Virus record (IMG/VR): IMGVR_UViG_3300012953_000144
Location: 1-29,703 of that record
Source: a virus
Lineage: Duplodnaviria > Caudoviricetes
Length of the DNA: 29,703 bases
Strand: one strand, 5' to 3'
Shown here: piece after piece, positions 1 to 29,703 of the stretch
Numbering within the stretch: position 1 is the first letter of the stretch
How the letters are laid out: every line of letters starts with the position of its first letter
Notes under the pieces: model-generated
The model's database searches: none
Seen by the model: the letters and a program-made list of their open reading frames with translations, nothing else
Told to the model about the DNA's origin: nothing
Program-made: the position numbers and the translations under genes

Positions 1-603
1 CAAAGGAGGTCAAACAGCGCGTTCGCTACGTTTAGCACCGCAGTTACACAAGCACCTGACATTTATCTCATTAGAGCCTTGAAGCACGCTTGCGCTCAAA
101 ATAAAGGCTTCTTTGAAGTTATAGAAAGGATAGGCCTTGACGCGATTACAAAGGAACGCCAGATAATCAGAAGCACTAGGGAGCAGTTTGAAGAAGACTA
201 CAAACTCAAGCCATTAATGTTCGCAGGTTTAATCATGCAAGGTTCTGTGGTAGGATATGAGAGCAATGTAAAGTCAGGTGGCATAGGAGCAAGATATTTA
301 GGGATAGGTTCATCTCAAGAATATAGACAAGACACTGTCGTAGTATCTTTGCGTACCGTATCAGTAAGTACTGGTCGCATTCTATTGGAGGTCTTGGTTA
401 CGAAAACGATTCTGTCGGTTTCAAATAGCCAAGATGTATTTAGGTTCGTTGCAAACGGAACTGAACTGATAGAAATAGAGAAAGGCAAAGTTGAAAACGA
501 AAGCGTCAACATCGCCTTACAAGCAGCCATAGAGACTGCAGTACTCCAAACTATCAACGAAGGTCGTTTGGCGAATTTTTGGAGTATAAAAGATGAAGAC
601 TAA
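1..603 (+). CDS. csgG: Curli secretion channel CsgG-like protein (5'-truncated by window edge)
   Basis: Frame is open from base 1 (QRRSNSAFATFSTAVTQAPD...). CsgG motifs: FSTAVTQ, FEVIERIGL..I.KERQIIRS.R, GGIGARYLGIG.S.EYRQD.V.VSLR.VSV.TG.IL..V...KTILS, NESV.IALQAAIE.AV. Confidence 0.92.
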   Translation, partial: QRRSNSAFATFSTAVTQAPDIYLIRALKHACAQNKGFFEVIERIGLDAITKERQIIRSTREQFEEDYKLKPLMFAGLIMQGSVVGYESNVKSGGIGARYLGIGSSQEYRQDTVVVSLRTVSVSTGRILLEVLVTKTILSVSNSQDVFRFVANGTELIEIEKGKVENESVNIALQAAIETAVLQTINEGRLANFWSIKDED

Positions 604-1315
604 GTTAATACGATTATCATTGTTAGTTGTATGTTGTTATCCGTTTTCAGTCTATTCCGCAGATAACGAAATCTATATTCAACAATCTGGCGCAACGGCC
701 AATATAGATGTTGAACAATTAGGCTCAGGAAACCTCATCGGTGGTACAGATGCAATAGCAGGAACTATGACAGCACTTGACCTTGACGGCGCAAATATGA
801 CGCTTGATATAAATCTTATAGGAGACACTAATAAATTCCTAGGTGATATATGGGCTGATTCCTACACAGGTTTCTTTGAATTTGACGGTGATAGTAATAC
901 CTTCAATATCCAAACTGACCCCACAAACACTTTCGGAGCAGATAATTCAAACGTCAACGTGGATGTGACAGGTGGCTCAAACGCTATGACCTTGAATCAA
1001 GCAACATCTGCCCTTGCAAGTGGGTTAGATTTAGATTGGATAATACAAGGTTCTGACAACTCAATCACGGCAAGTATAGATTATGATGGGGCGACTAACT
1101 ATATGGATATAGATGGTTCGGACAACACCGTAACCTTTGATGGCGACGGATATGCAGGTGGTTATTTCAAACTGGAACAAGATGGCAGCAACAGAACATT
1201 CAATATCCAACAACAGTCAACGCTTGATAACGATTGGTTACGTATCATTTCTACTGGCAGCAACGGCACTATCTGCGTCATTCAGAACGACGGCGGAACC
1301 TCTACAAGCTGTTGA
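593..1315 (+). CDS. Secreted curlin-like (CsgA/CsgB-type) repeat protein
   Basis: Sec signal peptide (...FSVYSA/DN) followed by degenerate strand-G-x-x-N repeats (EQLGSGN, NLIGDTN, FDGDSN, VTGGSN, IQGSDN, IDGSDN, EQDGSN). Overlaps the csgG stop. Confidence 0.75.
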   Translation: MKTKLIRLSLLVVCCYPFSVYSADNEIYIQQSGATANIDVEQLGSGNLIGGTDAIAGTMTALDLDGANMTLDINLIGDTNKFLGDIWADSYTGFFEFDGDSNTFNIQTDPTNTFGADNSNVNVDVTGGSNAMTLNQATSALASGLDLDWIIQGSDNSITASIDYDGATNYMDIDGSDNTVTFDGDGYAGGYFKLEQDGSNRTFNIQQQSTLDNDWLRIISTGSNGTICVIQNDGGTSTSC

Positions 1316-2345
1316 CGTTGGTGAGATAAGCGAACTATCAGGCTACGCTAAAGTCATCAGAGATAAGGATTACGAAGGTAGTCTTAACTTTGATATACAG
1401 CAACTTGATGATGTGCGTACAAGCGCAGGCCGAGTTGCGATAACTTTTCTTGACGAATCAAAAGTTCGTTTGACTGAGCATTCCAAATTAGTCATAGATG
1501 AGTATATCTATGATCCTAACCCATCAAAGTCAAAGATGGCTCTCAAGTTCGCTAGTGGTACGGCTAGGTTCATAACAAGTTCTTTGAACCGAATAGACAA
1601 GCAAAACATTTCTTTAAAGACTCCAACTGCAGACATAGCTATAAGAGGGACAGATTTTACATGTACTGTTGATGAACTAGGGCGAAGCCTAATAATACTT
1701 TTACCAGATGCGAACGGAGATGCCTCAGGAGAAATAGTAGTTTCAACAATGATGGGAAGCGTTACGTTAAATAAGCCGTATGAAGCCACAACTGCGCAGC
1801 TTTCATTACAAGAACCCACGAAGCCTGTGATACTTGATTTGTCGCTTGAGTTTATTGACAACATGCTAATAGTAAATCCGCCTAGGGAAGATGAAAGATT
1901 TGTTGAGGAATCTATTGACTCTAGCAGAGGCGATTATCTAGATTTTAACGACCTTGATATAGACTTCCTTAACGAAGAGTTTCTTGATGATAGAGATTTG
2001 GAATTTACGGAACTTGATATCAACTATCTTGATGTGAACTTTTTGGAAGATTTATTAGATATTCTTGATGACCTAGCCATATCAGAAGAAGAGGATCAAT
2101 TAGCGCAAGTTGCAACGTCAATCGGTATAACAGGAACGGAAATAGGCCAAGATACAGACACTCAAATAACTACTATCATTACAGGACAAACAGTATCTTT
2201 GAGGCGTTCTGTTGGAGGCATAATAAGACTAGACGTTGACGGAAGTAATGCTTATACAATAATATTTATACAAAATGGAATATCGCGAGTAGTTAAAGTT
2301 AATGGAGGTAGCGATTCAACGATAACTATAACGCAATCAAACTAA
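1224..2345 (+). CDS. Secreted FecR-domain protein with acidic repeat linker
   Basis: FecR signature D.VRT..GR..I.F.D.S.V.L.EHS.L.IDEY.Y and L.TPTA.IAIRGTDF, preceded by a hydrophobic signal-like segment. Start uncertain: ATG 1137/1182 or TTG 1224. Confidence 0.8.
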   Translation: MITIGYVSFLLAATALSASFRTTAEPLQAVDVGEISELSGYAKVIRDKDYEGSLNFDIQQLDDVRTSAGRVAITFLDESKVRLTEHSKLVIDEYIYDPNPSKSKMALKFASGTARFITSSLNRIDKQNISLKTPTADIAIRGTDFTCTVDELGRSLIILLPDANGDASGEIVVSTMMGSVTLNKPYEATTAQLSLQEPTKPVILDLSLEFIDNMLIVNPPREDERFVEESIDSSRGDYLDFNDLDIDFLNEEFLDDRDLEFTELDINYLDVNFLEDLLDILDDLAISEEEDQLAQVATSIGITGTEIGQDTDTQITTIITGQTVSLRRSVGGIIRLDVDGSNAYTIIFIQNGISRVVKVNGGSDSTITITQSN

Positions 2346-2346
2346 T

Positions 2347-2679
2347 ATGAAGACGAGCAGTTGCAAAGCAAAAGGAAGAAGACTACAACAATGGTTCGTG
2401 TCAGTCTTGAATGAGCAGTTAGGATTGCCTGATATTGAATCAAGGCCTATGGGTAGCCAAGGCGAAGACATAATGATGGGCAACGAATCCCGTCGTGCGT
2501 TCCCGTACTCTATTGAGTGTAAAAACCAAGAAGCAGTCAATATATGGAAGGCTTATGACCAAGCGGAATACAACTCAGGCGATCACGAGCCTATAGTTGT
2601 TTTGAAGCGTAACCGCAGCAAACCTCTCGTCCTAGTAGACGCAGAGCATTTCGTGGCTTTGCACAAGAATGAAATATAA
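2347..2679 (+). CDS. PD-(D/E)xK Holliday junction resolvase-like nuclease
   Basis: S.KAKGRRLQ, GEDI, IECKN, W..Y.QA, P.VV.KRNR..PLV pattern of phage Hjc-like resolvases. Confidence 0.75.
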   Translation: MKTSSCKAKGRRLQQWFVSVLNEQLGLPDIESRPMGSQGEDIMMGNESRRAFPYSIECKNQEAVNIWKAYDQAEYNSGDHEPIVVLKRNRSKPLVLVDAEHFVALHKNEI

Positions 2680-4444
2680 GATTGGGTTATGTTTGTTGGT
2701 AGTATTATCACTGCCACTTATATTCCAATCAACGCCTACTGAAATACTCAAACTCAAGATATTTGATTCTTTAGTCATTACGCCAGAAGAATCAGGTTAT
2801 TTTGCAACGCTAAATATAACTGAAGACGATATCACCGCTGAAGGCGGTTACCCTCTAAGTCGCAGTCGCTTAGCCGAGATACACATACAACTCTTACAGC
2901 GAGGTGCTATAGGCGTTGGATGGGCACTTAGCTTCCCCCAAGAAGATAGATTCAAAGGCGATGATGACTTCGCTTATGCGTTATCGTTAGCTCCTTCCCT
3001 TCTTTCAAGTTTTGAAAACGACAAAGGAGATACACCTAAGACAGTTGGAACCGTAATTCTAGGTGATGAAGTGGGTGGTATTGAGATAGGCGGAGTGATC
3101 AGCAACTACTCAAAACTCAGTGATAACGCCATGGAAGGAGTATCTTCGGCGCGTATTGATGTTGATGGCTTAGTACGCAGGATGCCTCTCCTTTACAAAA
3201 CACAAGATGGTTGGACTCCCGCTTTTGGAACCCAGATATTGAAGTTGCTAACAGGTAGCGATACCTATGTGATTAAGACGAACCCTAATGGTATAGAAGA
3301 GGTGAGGGTGAAAGGCCTACCGCCTGTGAAGACTGATTCATATGGCCGAAAGTGGATTTCATGGATAGTTCCACGTGAAACAACCTTAGCGGAAATGAAT
3401 GTTGAAGGACGCTTCGTTATCGTTGGAGTTACTGCAAAAGGAGTTATGCCACAATTAGCTATACCTAATGGTCAACTTTTGGAACCGCATAAGATACAAG
3501 GCGCACTAGCTGAATCAATATTGCTTGAAAATAGCCCTTATATACCTGATTACGCTTTAGCTGTTGAGGTATTGACGTTATTAGCCTCTGTAATCGCCAT
3601 ATGGCTCTTTGTGAACGGATTAGGCATAACATGGGGCATTTCCCTAGCTTTTGTAGTTTTGGTCTCTACAGGCCTCTCAGGAGCTCTCCTGATACGCTCA
3701 GGATTATTGATTGATGTCAGTTGGGCTTTAATTTGTCAATTTATTACGGCAGCGGTCGCATTTTACCTTAACTTTAGAGACCAATATAAACTGCGCTTAC
3801 AAATCAAAAAGCAGTTTGAGCATTATCTTGATCCAAGGCAGGTCAAAAGATTGCAGTCAAATCCAGAAATACTGAGGTTAGGCGGAGAAAAGAAAGAAGC
3901 GACCTTCTTGTTCACTGATGTTAGAGGCTTCACTTCGTTGTCTGAAGCGTTACCGCCTGAACAAGTAGTATATATAATGAATCGCGCTCTTACAGCACAA
4001 GCTGATGCGGTGATGAAATATGAAGGAACGATAGATAAGTATATCGGTGATGCGATGATGGCGATATTCAATGCGCCATTTGATCAGGAAGACCATGAAA
4101 CAAGAGCGGTGCTTTGTGCGTGGCAGATAAATGAAAACATGAAAGAACTGAACGAGGAGTTGTCTGAGAAAAACTTGCCTCTGGTTGCAATCGGTATAGG
4201 TATAAATACAGGGGAAGCGGTGATAGGTAATATGGGATCAGAAAAAAGGTTTGATTACACAGCTATCGGCGACGCTGTAAATACCGCAGCAAGACTTGAA
4301 AGTGCGACTAAAGAACATGGTGCTAGTTTGTTGGTTGGAGAGCGAACTGCCATAAAAAGCAATTATGAGTTACACTATCATAAGGAAATAGAAGTGAAAG
4401 GTAAAAGTATAGGACTCAAGACATACACATGGGACTTAAATTGA
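2669..4444 (+). CDS. Membrane-bound CHASE2-domain class III adenylate cyclase
   Basis: N-terminal TM segment, CHASE2-like region (YPLSR, DVDGLVRRMPL), three TM helices, then cyclase motifs FTDVRGFT, DKYIGDAMMAIFNAP, GIGINTG, GNMGS..RFDYTAIGDAVNTAARLES, VKGK. Confidence 0.93.
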   Translation: MKYKIGLCLLVVLSLPLIFQSTPTEILKLKIFDSLVITPEESGYFATLNITEDDITAEGGYPLSRSRLAEIHIQLLQRGAIGVGWALSFPQEDRFKGDDDFAYALSLAPSLLSSFENDKGDTPKTVGTVILGDEVGGIEIGGVISNYSKLSDNAMEGVSSARIDVDGLVRRMPLLYKTQDGWTPAFGTQILKLLTGSDTYVIKTNPNGIEEVRVKGLPPVKTDSYGRKWISWIVPRETTLAEMNVEGRFVIVGVTAKGVMPQLAIPNGQLLEPHKIQGALAESILLENSPYIPDYALAVEVLTLLASVIAIWLFVNGLGITWGISLAFVVLVSTGLSGALLIRSGLLIDVSWALICQFITAAVAFYLNFRDQYKLRLQIKKQFEHYLDPRQVKRLQSNPEILRLGGEKKEATFLFTDVRGFTSLSEALPPEQVVYIMNRALTAQADAVMKYEGTIDKYIGDAMMAIFNAPFDQEDHETRAVLCAWQINENMKELNEELSEKNLPLVAIGIGINTGEAVIGNMGSEKRFDYTAIGDAVNTAARLESATKEHGASLLVGERTAIKSNYELHYHKEIEVKGKSIGLKTYTWDLN

Positions 4445-7393: not shown

Positions 7394-7551
7394 AATCCTC
7401 TCCCAATTTTGTCGTAAGTCTTTTCAAGTCGCGATGGCGCGTATCTTTTGACTTTATTAGTTTCCTCATCTAAGAACAAAACCTTTCCGCTCTTGCGGTC
7501 AGTACCCATATACTGACCGAAGAACGTGGTTCCTTTTACCCGAAGCCTCAC
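7390..7551 (-). CDS. Small hypothetical protein (53 aa), not in ORF track
   Basis: GTG start overlapping the ardC stop (GTGA), GGAGG RBS. MRLRVKGTTFFGQYMGTDRKSGKVLFLDEETNKVKRYAPSRLEKTYDKIGRGL* ends in an ATGA overlap with the next gene. Confidence 0.6.
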   Translation of the reverse strand: MRLRVKGTTFFGQYMGTDRKSGKVLFLDEETNKVKRYAPSRLEKTYDKIGRGL

Positions 7552-8432
7552 GCAGCCTCCTCTTTCTCTTTGACTAATGAGTCAAGATAGTCAACCGCTT
7601 TTTGTGCTTGAGAAAAGGCAGAGGAAAGAGCGTTATCACTTTCGCTGATAATCTCAATCCAATTATTAAGGTATTGTGCGTGGTCGGCACGAACAGTCTT
7701 CTCAACTCCTTGAAGTTGACATAAGAAAGCTGAACCAATCTCGGCGACAAGTTCTTCTTTAGCATATTCTTCTGAACCGAACATACTTCCTTTAAGTCTG
7801 TCGCAACGAGTTTTGTGGCCAGTCCAATGAGTTAGTTCGTGAAGTAAAGTAGAGTAGTAGTCAACGTCTGAAAAGAACGCTTTGATATGAGGCATACCGA
7901 TTGTATCGGTTGAAGGTCTGTAGTGCGGTTGATCATGTTCAGTGATTTTTGCACCTGTTTGATTAATGAAAGAATCAATACTCATAACCTCTTCAACAGT
8001 AAGTTCTTTAGTAGGATTCTTGACTACGTTAGTAGATTCATAACCTTCAATCTGGTCAGCGTTGAAGACGTTATAGACTTTCCAGAGAAAGTATTTAGGA
8101 AGGACGCCAGTAGCGTTGAAAGTTTCAAGTTCAGTTCCTTCTAACCACTCTTTTTTCTTAGGCTTTACTTCGCAAAACACTACGAAAGAAGATTTAGAAC
8201 CTTTTTTGATTTTGTAACCTTTACCGCTCCATTGCTTGAATGTTCCCCACTCATTAGATGAAAAGCCTTGCATAGCTAACCAAAAGTGGTTCATGCCACG
8301 ATATGCTTTTTTACTGAGGAAGTTAGTAGGAACGCCGTTCCCAATCCAAGACTTAGTCCAATTAGAGCCTTCAGTTTCCATTAACTGTATAACTCTTTCT
8401 CGTATCATTTGAAATGCTTCTGCTTTTTTCAT
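7548..8432 (-). CDS. ardC: ArdC-family antirestriction / ssDNA-binding protein
   Basis: N-terminal W.K.W, P.N..S.K.YRG.N, W.TFKQW...G..IKKG.K, VFNADQIEG. C-terminal zincin-like YYSTLLHELTHWTGH..R, YAKEELVAEIGSAFL, HAQYL.NW. Confidence 0.92.
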   Translation of the reverse strand: MKKAEAFQMIRERVIQLMETEGSNWTKSWIGNGVPTNFLSKKAYRGMNHFWLAMQGFSSNEWGTFKQWSGKGYKIKKGSKSSFVVFCEVKPKKKEWLEGTELETFNATGVLPKYFLWKVYNVFNADQIEGYESTNVVKNPTKELTVEEVMSIDSFINQTGAKITEHDQPHYRPSTDTIGMPHIKAFFSDVDYYSTLLHELTHWTGHKTRCDRLKGSMFGSEEYAKEELVAEIGSAFLCQLQGVEKTVRADHAQYLNNWIEIISESDNALSSAFSQAQKAVDYLDSLVKEKEEAA

Positions 8433-11339: not shown

Positions 11340-11552
11340 ATGACACTACAAGATTACTTGAAAAGTAGGAACCTAACGCAGATGGCTTTTATTCAACAAG
11401 TCAACACAGCGACAGGCGAACACATTCCGCAGGGTACTTTAGCTAAGTATGTTTTGGGCGAGCGTATACCTAAGAAACGACAAATGCTTCTGATACATGA
11501 AGCGACAGAGGGTGAGGTATCGCCTAATGATTTCTACTTGGAGGAAAAATGA
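11340..11552 (+). CDS. Cro-like HTH transcriptional regulator
   Basis: M.L.DYL....LTQ..F, TL.KY..GERIP, I...T.G.V.PNDFY. Confidence 0.85.
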   Translation: MTLQDYLKSRNLTQMAFIQQVNTATGEHIPQGTLAKYVLGERIPKKRQMLLIHEATEGEVSPNDFYLEEK

Positions 11553-12193
11553 GCTACGAAGTAACTATGATGAAAACCGAAGACCTTATACCTTATGAGG
11601 ACAATCCTAGAGTAAACGACAAAGCTGTGCAAAAGGTCGTGCAGAGCATAGAGGCTGTTGGGTGGAAGGTGCCTATTATAGTTGATGAAAACCTAATAAT
11701 ACTAGCAGGTCACACAAGGCTCAAAGCAGCGCAGGTTTTAGGCCATGAAGAAGTTCCCGTTCATATTGGCGAAGGCCTAACGAACGAACAAAGAACAGCG
11801 TTCAGAATAATGGATAACAAGAGCGCGGATTTTTCAGAGTGGGACAGAGATTTATTAGCGTCAGAGTTCGCTAAATTGACTGATGCAGATTTTGATCTAA
11901 AGTTAACAGGGTTTGATCTTGATGAAATAGCCAAGCTAACGCAAGGCGCACTCATGGAGTTTGATGATCCTGAGGTTGACGAGATACTAGATGGTATAGA
12001 TACCGCAGATGCGATTGACTTGTTAGAAACGAACATAAAACAGTTTTCGCTTTTGTTTGATAAAGACAAGCACGCAGAGTTTTCTGTTTGGGTAGACTAT
12101 CTAATGTCCGCATACGAAATGACGAATCCCTCGGAAGCTGTTTTCCAAGCTGTGAGGAGCGAGTATGAAAAGTATTCCAACATACAAACTTAA
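11549..12193 (+). CDS. ParB/Srx N-terminal domain protein
   Basis: L.PY..NPR.N, SI...GW..PIIVDE, AGHTRLKAA, FRIMDNK, LTGF. Confidence 0.88.
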   Translation: MSYEVTMMKTEDLIPYEDNPRVNDKAVQKVVQSIEAVGWKVPIIVDENLIILAGHTRLKAAQVLGHEEVPVHIGEGLTNEQRTAFRIMDNKSADFSEWDRDLLASEFAKLTDADFDLKLTGFDLDEIAKLTQGALMEFDDPEVDEILDGIDTADAIDLLETNIKQFSLLFDKDKHAEFSVWVDYLMSAYEMTNPSEAVFQAVRSEYEKYSNIQT

Positions 12194-13082
12194 ACCTAAA
12201 TGTTCTTTTGAAGAATCCAGAGAGTATTTTGGTAAATTTGCTACTGATAAAGATTATTCAATTTTAATCAACGATGACTGCGATGCCTATAAAGAGAATG
12301 GTGAACCATTGTTCTTCTTTCGTAAGCGCAAGATACCTAGTGAAATATGTCGTGAGGCTTATCATGGCTTCAAAGCAGCAGCGGTTAAAACGGAGAACAG
12401 AGGCGCAGCAGCAGGCAGCTTAACTGACACTGAAAAGAGTCATGTTGCAACAAGCAACCTAAGGTACAAGCGGATCAAAAAAGACGGAACGATGTCCAAA
12501 ACGACCAGAGCAGTTCAGGTCAGTTCAGGTATCGCAGGTTTCTTTGATAGAAATACTAGGCATCCGTACTGCAGGCAGACAAGATATACAGAGTTAGAAC
12601 GGGAGAAGTATCTGCGCGGTGTTCCTTTCCTACAATATATCAGCGCACTTTTTGAGGACGCGTGCCCTGAAAGGTATGAAGCACAAAAAGAAATGATAGA
12701 AAAGACTCATAAGGATTTTGTTATTGGAGGAACAGTTTTCACCACAGTTACTGTCAACAAAAACTTTAGGACTGCATATCATACTGACGCGGGAGATTTG
12801 AAGGAAGGGTTAGGCAACTTGGCTGTTTTAAGGGCAGGTAAATATGAAGGCGGGTATACCGTTATGCCACGCTATGACTGTGCTTTTGATTTGGGCAGTG
12901 GTGATGTTTGTTTTTTTGATGTTCATGAGTTTCACGGGAATACAGAGATAGTTGCGAAGAGCCCTTACGAGAGAATATCAATAGTTGCGTACTACAGAGA
13001 GAATATGAAGTTTTGTGATTCAATGGAAGAAGAACTGAAACGCGCACAACATCGGGTTATTGGAGATAAGCTAAACGCATGA
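12165..13082 (+). CDS. TET/JBP-family 2OG-Fe(II) dioxygenase (5-methylpyrimidine oxygenase)
   Basis: NRG.AAG, SGIAGFFDR, CRQT, FTTVTVNKNFRTAYHTDAGD (HxD), HEFHGNT (distal H), ERISIVAYYRE (2OG-binding R). Confidence 0.88.
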   Translation: MKSIPTYKLKPKCSFEESREYFGKFATDKDYSILINDDCDAYKENGEPLFFFRKRKIPSEICREAYHGFKAAAVKTENRGAAAGSLTDTEKSHVATSNLRYKRIKKDGTMSKTTRAVQVSSGIAGFFDRNTRHPYCRQTRYTELEREKYLRGVPFLQYISALFEDACPERYEAQKEMIEKTHKDFVIGGTVFTTVTVNKNFRTAYHTDAGDLKEGLGNLAVLRAGKYEGGYTVMPRYDCAFDLGSGDVCFFDVHEFHGNTEIVAKSPYERISIVAYYRENMKFCDSMEEELKRAQHRVIGDKLNA

Positions 13083-13612
13083 AAGCAGTAGCGATTGGAG
13101 GAGTTCCCGCGACAGGAAAATCAACCCTCATGAAGCACATACTGAAAAAAGCGAAGGTTGAAAAGAAGTTCGCGTACGGTTTATTAAGAGGCTATACAGT
13201 TGGTGATACTGCGTTCTTAGGCCTATATCCCGCAGGCGATAAGTTTGGCGGTACTGATAAGCTTTCCATGGCGGTACAAAAGGATTACGACAAATTCGTT
13301 GATGAACTTAAATACAACATCGTTTTTGAAGGCGATAGACTATTTACCGCACACAATCTTTTAGCCTTGCAAATCACCCATACGGCGCGGATTATCATTC
13401 TAAATAATAACGCTATGACGTTAGCGCATAGACACATTGACAGAGAGGACACTCAGAGCGAGAAGTTTCTGAAAGGTCGCACCACGAAAATCAAAAATAT
13501 AAAGGAAAACGAATATATAACGCATGAGCCTTATGAGTTGACTAACTTGCAAGAAACAGAAGATTTAGCTGATGATATTTTAGGCTTTCTTGACTTGGGT
13601 GGTTCTGACTAA
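13079..13612 (+). CDS. P-loop kinase, 5-hydroxymethylpyrimidine DNA kinase-like
   Basis: GGVPATGKST Walker A, F.GTDKLSMAVQ, FEGDRL, Q...FL.GR.TK. Coupled to TET. Confidence 0.75.
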   Translation: MKAVAIGGVPATGKSTLMKHILKKAKVEKKFAYGLLRGYTVGDTAFLGLYPAGDKFGGTDKLSMAVQKDYDKFVDELKYNIVFEGDRLFTAHNLLALQITHTARIIILNNNAMTLAHRHIDREDTQSEKFLKGRTTKIKNIKENEYITHEPYELTNLQETEDLADDILGFLDLGGSD

Positions 13613-14713
13613 ATCGTTATATTCATTCTTAAAACAATCAAACATAGTGTCCATCATCACAGGCTGACCTGTTAAGCGGTAGTGGTTCTGCTTAATTTTT
13701 GTTACGCCAACATCACTTGGATTCTTTTCTAATAATAGTTCGTCAGGCAAACACTCGTCCCGCATCTGCCAAAAAATATCAAACTCATTTCCCCATTGAC
13801 TTTCAGCATATTTAATCCTGTCGTGAAACATATCCGCGTAGACGTTGGGATATCTTCTGTCAGGCCTGTGCCATGATTTGTAATTACATAAGGTGCTTTC
13901 AAGGGTAAAGTAACTTACGTCCTCGTGGTCAATACGTTCTCTAGCTTCTTCTAGAAGTTTTTCTCCTTCTTCTGTAAGCCATGAAATAGTTTGTTCGTCA
14001 TAGGTGACCTCATCTTTCCACCAATCAAGGTCATCACGTCCTAAGACTTTGCATATCCCGTTTCTATGAGAGCGCGAACCTTTTATATCATCAAGGTAAA
14101 GTTCATCACAATCTACGTTCAGGCCAACTATGCGCAGATACTCAATGTAACTGAACGCAGACAACCGACCAAAAGTTACAAAACATTCGCGAACGTATTT
14201 CCAAACTTGGCGATAGTTCTCATATTTGTCATTGGAACGACATAAGTCTTTGAACATATTAGTTTGACTTCCATAAACACGCACAAGCGTTTGATACCTT
14301 TCAACGCAAGCAGGGAATCCTGTTTTGCCTAATTTGAAGTACCGCCTATCTAAATCCCAACCACCGCCAACTTTGAACTTTTGGTGAACGCTGTTCCACC
14401 AAGTATTAAGTTCGTGAAGGTCTATCTCCATTACGTCAGGGTATCTATTGAATATCAGATTGGTCGTTACGATGTTTTGTGAGCAGCCATTGATGAAAGC
14501 CATCCATAACATTTGCTCGTGATTGAGTTGATGATATTTTTCTAGCCATGGGAAAGCGAAGTAGACGCAACCAGGATGTGTCTTGTGTATCAGATGAAAC
14601 TCATAGAAGCGCATAAACACTTCACGGCGGTATTTAGGCTCACGAAAGTCCATTCCAAACGCTAAGTCTTTTACTGGCGTTTCATTATTGAGTTCGCAGT
14701 ATGAACCGATCAT
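13580..14713 (-). CDS. Amino acid:DNA transferase (aGPT-Pplase2-like, HhH glycosylase fold)
   Basis: DRRY, FGRLSAFSYIEYL, GSRSHRNG, LESTLCNYKS motifs typical of thymidine-hypermodification transferases. Adjacent to the kinase. Confidence 0.78.
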   Translation of the reverse strand: MIGSYCELNNETPVKDLAFGMDFREPKYRREVFMRFYEFHLIHKTHPGCVYFAFPWLEKYHQLNHEQMLWMAFINGCSQNIVTTNLIFNRYPDVMEIDLHELNTWWNSVHQKFKVGGGWDLDRRYFKLGKTGFPACVERYQTLVRVYGSQTNMFKDLCRSNDKYENYRQVWKYVRECFVTFGRLSAFSYIEYLRIVGLNVDCDELYLDDIKGSRSHRNGICKVLGRDDLDWWKDEVTYDEQTISWLTEEGEKLLEEARERIDHEDVSYFTLESTLCNYKSWHRPDRRYPNVYADMFHDRIKYAESQWGNEFDIFWQMRDECLPDELLLEKNPSDVGVTKIKQNHYRLTGQPVMMDTMFDCFKNEYNDLVRTTQVKKA

Positions 14714-15456
14714 GATAACAATATGAACCCGTCGGAGTTCCCTTTTACATGAAAGTGCTTTTCTTCAAGGCCGTGTTTGCCTTTCATAGCTAGGCAGTAT
14801 CCTGTAGCTTTAGCTTTTTCTGATTTGTATCTATAACCTACCTTTATTATTGAATATCCGTGGCGTTTATAAAGCCATTCTGAGAAGGCTTGAAAGTAAT
14901 CGGTATGATCATGTAGGTCTTGGCCTAATAACGCCTCATATCGCGTTCTATTGATGCTCAGAGGGTATGATACTGAGGTGTCTGTCCAGTAAACATACAA
15001 AGGCTCTTGACTGAACACGCTATCATACTGTTTTGACCACGCTTTGCTCATCGTTATAGCTGAACTACTAGGACAATCACATATTCTTAAGTCATGATGA
15101 TCTATATCCAACATTGCTTGTTTTGCATCTTCGTGAACGGCAATCCAACGATCATCTCCGCTGAGTTGCTCAACACACTCTTCATCTAACTCACCTACTT
15201 TGTGGTCAGTAATGTTTAGAGTGTTTTGAAGAATCACGGACATTAATCCAACGCCACCAAAATACTCTCTTACTGATACAGGTTCAGAAACTAGGCCGTC
15301 AAAAAGCCAATGTGTCGCCCAACATTTCGCGCCTAGTATATGTTGGTGTTCAGCAAGATAATGAATATAGGAACGCTTATGAACATCTACGCTTGATTCT
15401 GCGTTCATTTCAACGCGGATGGGTAGGTCATACTTTAGGCATATTCTCGCTTTCAT
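14710..15456 (-). CDS. Divergent SAM-dependent methyltransferase-like protein
   Basis: VREYFGGVG (motif I-like), ELD (motif II), EDA (motif III), DLRICDCP (motif IV-like). Likely start ATG 15456 in a TAATG overlap. Confidence 0.5.
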   Translation of the reverse strand: MKARICLKYDLPIRVEMNAESSVDVHKRSYIHYLAEHQHILGAKCWATHWLFDGLVSEPVSVREYFGGVGLMSVILQNTLNITDHKVGELDEECVEQLSGDDRWIAVHEDAKQAMLDIDHHDLRICDCPSSSAITMSKAWSKQYDSVFSQEPLYVYWTDTSVSYPLSINRTRYEALLGQDLHDHTDYFQAFSEWLYKRHGYSIIKVGYRYKSEKAKATGYCLAMKGKHGLEEKHFHVKGNSDGFILLS

Positions 15457-26920: not shown

Positions 26921-27274
26921 ATGAGCGCAGGCTATCATCATTTTGTAATAGAACAAGGAGCGACATTCGGTCAGACGTTGACCTTAAAAGACTCTTCTGA
27001 TTCCCTCATCAATTTGACTGGGTACACCTCTGCCGAAATGGATTTGAGGACTGACCCTGAACAATCAAGCACTGTTCTCACTCTCACCACAGGCAACAGC
27101 CGAATAGCATTAGGCGGTACTGCGGGTACTGTCACATTAACTCTCACAGCAAGCGAAACAGATGCCTTGACTGCGGGAGACGGATATTACGATTTAGAAA
27201 TAACAAACTCTGCGGGATTCGTAACTCGGCTACTTGAGGGAACCTACAGCGTCAGGAGGAACGTGTCTAGATGA
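26921..27274 (+). CDS. Virion structural protein (Ig-like, BppU-N/LtfC-like)
   Basis: I.QGATF...L, NLTGY.....R, G.V.L.L.A..T..L, YDLE, RLLEG...V. Confidence 0.65.
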   Translation: MSAGYHHFVIEQGATFGQTLTLKDSSDSLINLTGYTSAEMDLRTDPEQSSTVLTLTTGNSRIALGGTAGTVTLTLTASETDALTAGDGYYDLEITNSAGFVTRLLEGTYSVRRNVSR

Positions 27275-29703
27275 GCACAGTAAATAGCATAACTGTTTCT
27301 GACGTTTCCAATATATCGGTAACGACAGTAGGAACACAAGGTGTTGCGGGACCGAATACAATACTTGGTAGGTCGGTCGCAGACAGCACAGCTTCAACCG
27401 CAGGAAGCCTTTTAGTTTATGATCACGGAAATACTCAATGGGTAGATTCGCAATCAACAGCAGCGCAATCCCTGACGGCCAAATTATATAATCTTCAATT
27501 CACTACTGGTGGTGCTTCTGTTACAGGAATACTTGATGAAGATAACATGGGTAGTAACAGCAATACTAAACTTGCTACTCAACAATCAATAAAAAGCTAT
27601 GTTGACGCTCAGAACGCAGCACAGGCCATCAGCTTCCAAGGAGATACTGGCGGTAATCAAAGCGTAACGATCAACTCAGAAGTCATGAACATCCTTGGCG
27701 GGACAGGTCTTGACTCAGTAGGTAGTGATGACACGATAACCTTCAACATTGACTCAACAGTTACTACTCTAACTGGAACGCAAACATTAACTAATAAAAC
27801 GCTTACGAGTCCTGTAATCAACACAGGGGATATCAATAACCCTGATATTGACGGAGGTAGTTTAGTAGGCGCAGCGATTGATAACTCAGTCATTGGGGCG
27901 AATACTGCCGTAGCCATCACGGGTACTGTTATCACCGCTACGAGTTTTGTAATAGGTAACGCGACGATCACGGAAGCTGAACTTGAGATACTTGATGGCG
28001 CAACTCTAACTACAGCTGAAATAAATCTACTTGACGGGACTACAACAGGAACAGTAGTTGCTTCCAAAGCATTAGCCGTAGACTCAAACAAAGACATAAC
28101 AGGGTTCAGGAATGTAACTCTAACAGGGGAACTTGACGCAGGAAGCCTTGATGTTTCAGGTGATGCCGATATAGACGGAACGCTTGAAGCCGACGCTATC
28201 ACGGTCAACGGAACAGCTTTAGCAGAAGTAATACAAGATACCGTAGGCGGTATGATCACAAGCAATACCGAGTCAGGTATAGCTGTCACATACGAAGACT
28301 CAGACGGGACGCTTGACTTCAATGTTGACGATTTCACGATTTCTTTAGCAGGGGATTTGTCAGGCTCCGTAACTATTACGGACTTAGCAAGTGCTTCACT
28401 TACGGCCACTATAGTAAATAATGCCGTAGCGTTAGGGACTGATACGACAGGAAATTATGTAGCCACTATAACGCAGAGCAACACAGGTATTGATGTTGCA
28501 AACTCTGGAAGCGAAACAGCAGCGATAACACTAGGCCTGAACACAGAGCATGTTCAAGATTTAGTTGGAGCGATGTTCAGTAGTAATACTGAAAGTGGTA
28601 TAGCGGTTACCTACCAAGATTCAGATGGGACAATAGACCTAGATGTTGATGACTTTGACATAACTCTTAGTGGAGATGTTGCAGGTAGCGGGACTATCAC
28701 TAACTTAGGTGATGTCACCATATCAACGACCATACAGGCTAATTCGGTGGCTCTTGGTACTGATACAACGGGTAACTACGTTGCTACGATTTCCGCAGGA
28801 GAAGGAATAGATGTTTCTGGAAGTGGTAGTGAGTCTGCAGGAGTTACTATCAGCGCGGAAGATGCCACCGACTCTAACAAAGGTATCGCCTCATTTGATG
28901 CAACAGACTTCACAGTTAGTTCAGGTGATGTAACTGTCAACGCAGAAAGAATCCAAGATATTGTAGGAGCTATGCTTTCCTCAAACACGGAAAGCGGTAT
29001 ATCACTAACGTATCAAGATAGTGACGGAACCATAGATGCGAACGTAGATGATTTCACTATTACTCTCGCGGGTGATCTTGGAGGTTCAGTAACAGTAACA
29101 GATTTAGCATCGGGAACGCTGACAGCAACGATACAAGCAAACTCAGTTGCGTTAGGCACAGATACTACAGGGAACTATGTCGCTACGATTGCTGATTCAG
29201 GCGATGGCACGATAACAGTTGCCAATAGTGGCTCTGAGTCAGCAGCAGTAACGCTAGACGTTGCAGATGATTCTATAGGCAACAACCACATTAAAAATAA
29301 TGCTGTTACTTTAGGGACACAAAGTACAGGAAACTACGTTGCAACTATTGCTGGAACGTCAAACGAGATAACTGTTTCAGGCTCAGGCTCAGAGACCGCA
29401 GCTGTAACTATCTCGCTACCTGATGATGTAACGATAGGTAACGATTTAACAGTTACTACAGATGCAACAGTAAGCCAAGACCTAACAGTTACGAGAGATA
29501 TAGCAGTAGGTAGAAACGCCGTAATCACTGGCAACCTAACTGTAAACGGAACAACAACGACAATAAACACAGCGAACCTTGACGTTGAAGATACTACGAT
29601 AAGGTTTGCAAAGAATGCCTCGTCATTAGCAGCTACGGACGGAGCGGGACTTGAGTTTGGTGGTTCAACAAGCAAGCCTACTATACTTTGGAACAACACG
29701 GCA
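27271..29703 (+). CDS. Long repeat-rich tail fibre / baseplate protein (3'-truncated, >810 aa, not in ORF track)
   Basis: ATGA overlap with the upstream gene; no stop seen in the in-frame stretches translated. Motifs DEDNM.S.S...LATQQSIK.YVD, QTLTNKTLTSP, GNLTVNGTTTTIN. Confidence 0.85.
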   Translation, partial: MSTVNSITVSDVSNISVTTVGTQGVAGPNTILGRSVADSTASTAGSLLVYDHGNTQWVDSQSTAAQSLTAKLYNLQFTTGGASVTGILDEDNMGSNSNTKLATQQSIKSYVDAQNAAQAISFQGDTGGNQSVTINSEVMNILGGTGLDSVGSDDTITFNIDSTVTTLTGTQTLTNKTLTSPVINTGDINNPDIDGGSLVGAAIDNSVIGANTAVAITGTVITATSFVIGNATITEAELEILDGATLTTAEINLLDGTTTGTVVASKALAVDSNKDITGFRNVTLTGELDAGSLDVSGDADIDGTLEADAITVNGTALAEVIQDTVGGMITSNTESGIAVTYEDSDGTLDFNVDDFTISLAGDLSGSVTITDLASASLTATIVNNAVALGTDTTGNYVATITQSNTGIDVANSGSETAAITLGLNTEHVQDLVGAMFSSNTESGIAVTYQDSDGTIDLDVDDFDITLSGDVAGSGTITNLGDVTISTTIQANSVALGTDTTGNYVATISAGEGIDVSGSGSESAGVTISAEDATDSNKGIASFDATDFTVSSGDVTVNAERIQDIVGAMLSSNTESGISLTYQDSDGTIDANVDDFTITLAGDLGGSVTVTDLASGTLTATIQANSVALGTDTTGNYVATIADSGDGTITVANSGSESAAVTLDVADDSIGNNHIKNNAVTLGTQSTGNYVATIAGTSNEITVSGSGSETAAVTISLPDDVTIGNDLTVTTDATVSQDLTVTRDIAVGRNAVITGNLTVNGTTTTINTANLDVEDTTIRFAKNASSLAATDGAGLEFGGSTSKPTILWNNTA
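28231..29410 (+). repeat. Protein-level tandem repeats in fibre gene
   Basis: QD.VG.M..SNTESGI..TY.DSDGT.D..VDDF at 28231, 28552, 28951. (A/T)LGT..TGNYVATI...SGSE.A at 28429, 28750, 29149, 29308. Confidence 0.9.

Follow-up and report, generated by a model that had tools for sequence, protein, structure and literature searches.

A phage locus around a ParB-dependent thymine dioxygenase combines a known DNA hypermodification pathway with one uncharacterised, predicted tailoring enzyme

The DNA analysed here, called the window throughout, is the 29,703-nucleotide stretch of virus record IMGVR_UViG_3300012953_000144 (IMG/VR; Duplodnaviria, Caudoviricetes), and its subject is a run of five adjacent genes predicted to hypermodify thymine in DNA (Table 1). 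They encode a ParB-like protein, a TET/JBP dioxygenase dependent on Fe(II) and 2-oxoglutarate (2OG), a P-loop kinase, an amino acid:DNA transferase (AADT) and a protein of methyltransferase fold, here named orf5. As the initial annotation had proposed, open reading frame (ORF) calls and domain matches place the five in two convergent operons, which overlap by 33 bp at 13580-13612. Starts and stops overlap within each operon (the stop of a small helix-turn-helix (HTH) gene with the ParB ATG, ParB with the TET start, and the orf5 stop with the AADT ATG), and the orf5 ATG at 15456 overlaps the stop of the primase-helicase gene. An independent contig (L001) has an identical gene arrangement and encodes proteins 92-95% identical to those of the window, so the layout is no assembly artefact.

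Table 1. Genes of the modification locus and the first gene of the plus-strand operon.
Gene product	Position	Strand	Length	Basis of assignment
ParB-like activator of the thymine dioxygenase	11549..12193	+	214 aa	phrog_620 (PHROG ParB-like) E 5e-49; Pfam ParB_N E 1.8e-5, just below cut-off
Fe(II)/2OG thymine dioxygenase, TET/JBP, 5mYOX clade C1	12165..13082	+	305 aa	PF12851 Tet_JBP E 9.7e-26, 90.4 bits
P-loop kinase, predicted 5-hydroxymethyluracil DNA kinase	13079..13612	+		PF18751 Ploopntkinase3 E 2.4e-6, 27.7 bits (cut-off 27)
AADT (aGPT-Pplase2), ViI gp247-like, predicted serine O-transferase	13580..14713	-		PF18724 ADDT E 1e-22, 81.4 bits
orf5, class I methyltransferase-fold protein dependent on S-adenosylmethionine (SAM), predicted tailoring enzyme	14710..15456	-		predicted fold; AADT linkage
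Small HTH protein, first gene of the plus-strand operon	11340..11552	+		HTH_3 E 0.0036 (Pfam)

The window is a partial phage genome in which Pfam and PHROG identified terminase, portal, prohead protease, capsid, lambda-O-like initiator and primase-helicase genes; no tail module was recognisable within its 29.7 kb. The same searches found no thymidylate synthase, C5-cytosine methyltransferase (C5-MTase), glycosyltransferase or DNA polymerase among the 43 ORFs scanned from this partial genome; for the open-ended ORF at 27271 the scan used NCBIfam alone. The initial annotation had likewise listed a hydroxymethylase and the last three of these enzymes as missing from the window. A complete 50-kb relative (G001; 50,057 bp with terminal repeats) has a terminase and a portal 59% and 60% identical to those of the window and carries ParB-TET-orf5-AADT-kinase in one run. 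It gave no Thymidylat_synt or DNA_methylase (PF00145) match and has no DNA polymerase among 56 ORFs scanned. This relative supports a polymerase-independent, TET-fed route in the phage family, although the genome from which the window comes is incomplete.

The TET protein contains H206-T-D208 and H257, which we take to be the iron triad (HxD...H), and R270-I-S272, presumably the RxS motif for 2OG. It extends 21 residues beyond its last conserved cysteine, C284, which, going by the motif, would be the equivalent of C280 in 5mYOX176, the best-studied member of clade C1. The first thymine-oxidising phage TET was reported by Burke et al. in 2021 (PMC8256090), and O'Toole et al. (PNAS 2026; PMC13229309; preprint 10.1101/2025.08.14.668559) defined phage thymine dioxygenases that depend on ParB as a class of their own, with consistent links to GATases, P-loop kinases and AADTs. 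When compared by eye with Dataset S11 of that paper, the window TET reads letter for letter like the published 5mYOX168 (305 aa), and the window ParB like ParB168 (214 aa). In E. coli, 5mYOX168 alone produced 0.45 and 0.33% 5-hydroxymethyluracil (5hmU), together with ParB168 it produced 2.21 and 2.24%, and ParB168 alone produced 0% in all four replicates; noncognate ParBs gave 0-1.3% 5hmU among 14 of the 31 such rows (PMC13229309, Datasets S2 and S11). Conversion of thymine to 5hmU on DNA, enhanced by ParB, has thus been shown for proteins identical to the window pair, and the assignment of this step to TET in the initial annotation is supported by published assay. Two features of clade C1 recur here: the ParB gene adjoins TET, and a C5-MTase is absent among the window ORFs and in the complete relative.

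In the kinase, an N-terminal Walker A (G8-S15) is followed by D60 of a G-x-D motif and by E84-G85; D60 and E84-G85 are common to M6 gp54 and PaMx11 gp49, which are assayed 5hmU DNA kinases, and the gene is encoded with an AADT. A profile built from 46 cassette kinases matched these two enzymes at E 6.6e-6 and 8.4e-6; a helicase used as control scored 0.004. On these motifs the kinase is likely to phosphorylate 5hmU in DNA.

The AADT keeps the catalytic residues of its family. In the crystal structure of PaMx11 gp46 (PMC11472151), E243, T244 and C247 serve as metal ligands and nucleophile; their aligned counterparts in the window AADT are E272, S273 and C276, and the E-x-x-x-C of PF18724 is preserved. 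Mutation of the catalytic Glu or Cys abolishes the activity of M6 gp51 and ViI gp247 (PMC8989533). Kinase and AADT together very probably make an adduct on DNA. Among four assayed AADTs only gp247, the serine:DNA transferase of Salmonella phage ViI, is detectably similar (26% identity, E 3e-19; PaMx11 gp46, E 0.98). Likewise, a profile of the orf5-linked AADTs recovered gp247 at E 3.4e-35, with E above 1 for the enzymes of M6, PaMx11 and PhiW-14, and a 24-row tree split the window group plus gp247 from these three with support 100/100. The glycine-binding residues D24, W146 and K150 of PaMx11 gp46 (PMC11472151) correspond in a sequence alignment to G48, L184 and S188 of the window AADT, and gp247 has L and N at the W146 and K150 positions. 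Since the binding residues are not kept, we rejected a glycine:DNA transferase of the M6 gp51 and PaMx11 gp46 type. Sequence searches of the PDB with the AADT and the orf5 profile returned chance matches only, and a single-sequence AlphaFold model of the AADT was not used (predicted local distance difference test, pLDDT, 37).

A further indication of the amino acid comes from a relative (L010) whose AADT, 62% identical to that of the window, is fused to a pyridoxal phosphate (PLP) domain with 38% identity to the ViI decarboxylase gp226 (E 1e-51) and 22% to M6 gp52. No radical SAM gene was found in this 67%-complete record nor in four other records, two of them complete. The ViI-type decarboxylase requires a free alpha-amine, which an O-serine linkage leaves open (PMC8989533). 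The likeness to gp247 and the gp226-type fusion in a relative make O-serinyl-thymine the likeliest adduct, and we consider a serine O-linkage slightly favoured on this comparative evidence.

orf5 has no match in Pfam, PHROG or NCBIfam. Its AlphaFold model (AF2, 11-sequence alignment; pLDDT 90.3, predicted template modelling score 0.90) is that of a class I methyltransferase. VIA aligned the model with Trm1 (Z 15.3, root-mean-square deviation 3.9, 210 aligned) and with RlmKL, an RsmD-like protein, RlmO and Trm5 (Z 14.0), and Foldseek also places it among class I methyltransferases. No spermidine synthase appears among the best 50 fold rows, with which an aminopropyl-type transfer is still compatible; ESM Atlas feature matches bearing methyltransferase names (score 0.87) serve as leads only. 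The Rossmann-like core has acidic residues at strand ends and a motif I of E64-Y-F-G-G68-V-G70, and the SAM-binding G68 and G70 together with D110, D122, D127 and D159 are invariant in homologues down to 16% identity (16-23%).

C5-cytosine methyltransferases carry a catalytic Pro-Cys in motif IV, and N6-adenine and N4-cytosine methyltransferases a (D/N/S)-P-P-(Y/F/W) motif IV. In the orf5 family motif IV reads D-[F/L/C/H]-P; its cysteine is not conserved, C128 being replaced by F, L or H in homologues, and PF00145 is not matched, so a C5-cytosine methyltransferase was rejected. An N6-adenine or N4-cytosine enzyme was rejected by motif as well: (D/N/S)PP(Y/F/W) is absent, only D127 and usually P129 are kept, and the residue at the fourth position, S in the window, varies.

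A profile scan of viral contigs yielded an orf5 family of 57 loci, forming 13 clusters at 70% identity. An AADT gene is present in 54 of these loci and in 13/13 clusters, and lies directly downstream of orf5 in 52; in the three loci that lack one, the contig ends within 5 bases of orf5. The methyltransferase had initially been described as an orphan, a label that falls short of these counts: orf5 is a conserved member of the cassette. TET was found in 53/57 loci, the kinase in 48/57 (tblastn) and ParB in 21/57. The commonest order is TET-orf5-AADT-kinase, so the window represents a rearranged form. In two near-identical loci (L082 and L083) the neighbours of orf5 are kinases, an AADT and a gene of the thymidylate synthase family, and the flanks of 4-5 kb contain no TET; a distant homologue (L020; hhalign 95.6%) likewise lies in a thymidylate-synthase-type cluster without a nearby TET. 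orf5 therefore appears to follow the AADT step and not the TET step, which counts against orf5 as a supplier of 5-methylcytosine (5mC). From the opposite direction, close orf5 homologues flank 10 of 16 AADT loci. Given this linkage it is probable that orf5 works within the pathway.

Some members of the wider family are found elsewhere. The idea that orf5 and a PLP decarboxylase are mutually exclusive was dropped: PLP genes occur in 0/57 close loci, but distant orf5 homologues do co-occur with PLP. Distant homologues apart from any AADT were seen in L098 (1297-2097) and L097 (1450-2223, minus strand), one between the large terminase gene and a probable small one, the other beside a 2OG-Fe(II) oxygenase. 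tblastn found no homologue of orf5 in cultured phages (best E 0.2), and the same was true of the distant L020 homologue. One cassette type has a 346-aa gene without a Pfam match between AADT and kinase (L069, 1977-3017).

Taken together, the data suggest the following route. ParB-assisted TET oxidises thymine in finished DNA to 5hmU, as assays of the identical published pair in E. coli have shown, and the kinase would then phosphorylate 5hmU in DNA. The AADT would replace the phosphate with serine, attached through its side-chain oxygen in a Cys-mediated displacement, and orf5 would use SAM to methylate the free amine of the serine adduct. The window encodes a lambda-O-like initiator and a primase-helicase with no polymerase detected, so copying by host enzymes is likely, with a fraction of thymines presumably decorated afterwards. 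We assign this full sequence of steps, from TET/ParB through kinase and AADT serine adduct to N-methylation by orf5, a rough probability of 0.55; the specific claim that orf5 N-methylates the adduct amine is more tentative. The modification probably serves nuclease defence or packaging.

Several observations weigh against this scheme. In E. coli 5mYOX168 is weakly active (2.2%, two replicates), and the best-studied clade member, 5mYOX176, oxidises 5mC and thymine comparably in vitro (PMC13229309). The kinase belongs to the Pfam family Ploopntkinase3, whereas the assayed enzymes M6 gp54 (HMUDK_HMUD1) and ViI gp243 (HMUD2) fall in others, so its activity is inferred here. ViI gp247 is only 26% identical to the window AADT and sits on a long branch (6.5), which makes the serine call weak. 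The fold matches of orf5 take in methyltransferases of the N-, O- and C- kinds, all lying some 3 Z units apart at most, and a common fold in a model proves no function by itself. orf5 is also optional beside an AADT: its profile has no match in a complete PLP-AADT record (G006), in mycobacteriophage Prince, in ViI or in Montesquieu, and in some records a homologue stands apart from an AADT. Finally, the window is a partial genome, and we found no assays of its kinase, AADT or orf5 in the literature.

The alternative that fares best, though we think it doubtful, is that the nucleophile taken by the AADT is not serine but a polyol, an amine or the side chain of another amino acid, and that orf5 methylates the resulting product. 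The distance to the only assayed close relative leaves room for this, as does the PUGT K150 position, which is S in the window and N in ViI. Glycine and putrescine transferases are excluded by profile and tree, however, and near relatives pair the AADT with a serine decarboxylase of the ViI gp226 type. Somewhat less probable still is a role for orf5 in the pathway with other chemistry, such as a carboxyl methyl ester, O-methylation of leftover 5hmU, methylation of a co-substrate before transfer, or aminocarboxypropyl transfer from SAM. The carboxyl/O-methyltransferases BioC and ChlM, and TYW2, are fold neighbours (Z 12.5-13.1) and rank high in Foldseek, and the D-x-P proline is missing in the two most distant homologues. 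Yet most of the highest VIA rows are methyltransferases that act on nitrogens of nucleic acids (Trm1, RlmKL, RsmD-like, Trm5, TrmM), and linkage to AADT rather than TET speaks against orf5 capping 5hmU directly.

It is improbable that orf5 is an N6-adenine or N4-cytosine DNA methyltransferase with an anti-restriction role of its own, carried along in the cassette without a part in the pathway. The Rossmann fold of orf5, its F-x-G-x-G motif I and an Asp ending strand 4 would suit such an enzyme, as would the distant homologues apart from AADT, including the one between terS and terL; against this stand the lack of a (D/N/S)PP(Y/F/W) motif, the AADT in all 54 loci having downstream sequence, and the absence from the window of TCGA (0 versus ~60 expected) and CCGG (0 versus 34), sites apparently avoided and not protected. 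The weakest rival, that cytosine is the modified base and TET oxidises 5mC supplied by orf5 or by a C5-MTase encoded beyond the window, can draw on the comparable oxidation of 5mC and thymine by 5mYOX176 and on the incomplete window, but is very unlikely given that 5mYOX168 makes 5hmU in vivo (PMC13229309), that orf5 has no conserved Pro-Cys motif, that PF00145 is unmatched in the complete relative and one C5-MTase query matched 0/57 orf5 loci within 5 kb, and that the AADT mechanism is known only on uracil substrates (PMC8989533).

If the proposed N-methylation holds, a bolder and rather speculative extension is that orf5 founds a phage methyltransferase family acting on a DNA-linked amino acid, turning O-serinyl-thymine into mono-, di- or trimethyl (betaine) serinyl-thymine. 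Both the DNA base and the tailoring chemistry would then be new, in a cassette that at least 50 viral contigs carry, and relatives with a ViI-type decarboxylase (L010, L020) would yield a choline-like, permanently cationic thymine. More generally, if orf5 methylates the adduct, SAM-dependent methylation would join decarboxylation, radical isomerisation, flavin cleavage and acetylation as a tailoring reaction, and a widespread cassette would make a new base. The locus is unusually tractable, as the TET/ParB pair works in E. coli and three added genes would therefore test the whole pathway.

Most of this route has precedents. The initial annotation had presented the sequence from thymine through 5hmU and phospho-5hmU to an adduct and its methylated form as a polymerase-independent route to a possibly new base; its mechanism is backed by the assayed identical TET/ParB pair, the conserved kinase and AADT motifs and the linkage of orf5 to AADT, whereas its claim to novelty has been overtaken by work published in 2021 and 2025-26, the final methylation and the new base being still predictions. 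Lee et al. (NAR 2021; PMC8989533) described metavirome clusters of TET_JBP, 5-HMUDK and aGPT-Pplase2 without a dUMP hydroxymethylase (Fig. 2, sequences 22-25), which share the window's logic of TET-made 5hmU in DNA feeding kinase and AADT, and those authors had already reached the conclusion of the initial annotation on this point. The tailoring enzymes listed in the available text of that paper are radical SAM, PLP, flavin, acetyltransferase, amidoligase and GATase proteins, with no methyltransferase. Clade C1 of O'Toole et al. contains a pair that reads identical to the window's TET and ParB and shares the kinase and AADT linkage; in its available portions, that paper (PMC13229309) assays the oxidation step only, with no kinase, AADT or orf5-like enzyme among the tested proteins, and orf5 matches none of the methyltransferase Pfams that it used for annotation.

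Two cultured phages are instructive. In ViI (gp243 kinase, gp247 serine:DNA transferase, gp226 decarboxylase; product 5-NeOmdU) the transferase is the closest assayed AADT and has the catalytic Glu/Cys and an FGRLSA motif in common with that of the window. There 5hmU is made in the nucleotide pool and the adduct is decarboxylated, whereas the window has TET and a methyltransferase fold, with no PLP enzyme in its sequenced part. Genes 1-4 of mycobacteriophage Prince encode ParB, a 'thymidine hydroxylase', AADT and a P-loop kinase, followed by terminase, and thus contain the same four core genes. They form a single co-directional operon, in contrast to the two convergent operons of the window; the Prince-type AADT is 41% identical to that of the window, and by profile Prince has no orf5 homologue. 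Our literature search found no chemical identification of end products of a TET-fed route, nor any earlier account of a methylated adduct or of an enzyme like orf5; figures, bioRxiv supplements and subscription papers lay outside it. We provisionally regard orf5 as an undescribed enzyme, as Iyer et al. 2013 may already mention a methylase beside aGPT-Pplases. Overall, the locus is a known pathway plus one uncharacterised, predicted tailoring enzyme.

Relatives of the window suggest that the chemistry downstream of TET is exchanged. We compared 11 loci with close TET relatives (63-95% identity), one of which (L001) has the window arrangement. L002, L006 and L009 carry a TET-associated glycosyltransferase, a HAD/kinase-like gene and a nucleotidyltransferase, a pattern that L007 and L008 resemble as judged by gene spacing alone. 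L003-L005 have a nucleotidyltransferase-cupin and a glycosyltransferase, and L010 and L011 a PLP-AADT fusion and a kinase. Among close relatives, at least four different modification modules thus occupy the slot from TET to primase-helicase (for example L002 7087-9296, L003 1587-3120 and L010 8908-11564). ParB-TET appears as a constant primer to which the downstream chemistry is exchanged, as expected with 5hmU as the common intermediate, and the occurrence of the same TET with glycosyltransferases in close relatives amounts to a natural experiment in the exchange of DNA-modification modules. The replication block in L010 and L011 is inverted relative to the window. The small HTH gene lies 5' of ParB in 10/11 TET loci, the sequence of L003 starting too near for judging, and its product is probably a regulator rather than a pathway enzyme. 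In a cultured marine phage, Methylophilales phage Melnitz-3 (L030, 2448-6528), a C5-MTase, TET/JBP, a gene without assigned function and the gene for the nearest homologue of the window kinase in cultured phages stand in a row.

Restriction-site counts are skewed across the family. Besides the missing TCGA and CCGG sites, GATC is halved in the window; G001 has 0 TCGA versus 47 expected, and the pattern extends to L001, L004, L006, L009 and L010. This suggests that the phage family avoids host restriction or methylation sites despite its T-modification genes. An ArdC-like anti-restriction protein (ArdcN + MPTase-PolyVal) is encoded at 7548-8432 (minus strand) and also in L001, L010 and L011. 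At 79-4444 (plus strand), CsgG-like, FecR-domain and CHASE2-adenylate/guanylate cyclase genes adjoin lysis genes, and the CHASE2-cyclase gene is present also in L004 and L005. The open-ended ORF at 27271-29703 (plus strand), repetitive, rich in Thr, Asp and Gly, longer than 811 aa and cut by the contig end, probably encodes a fibre or decoration protein.

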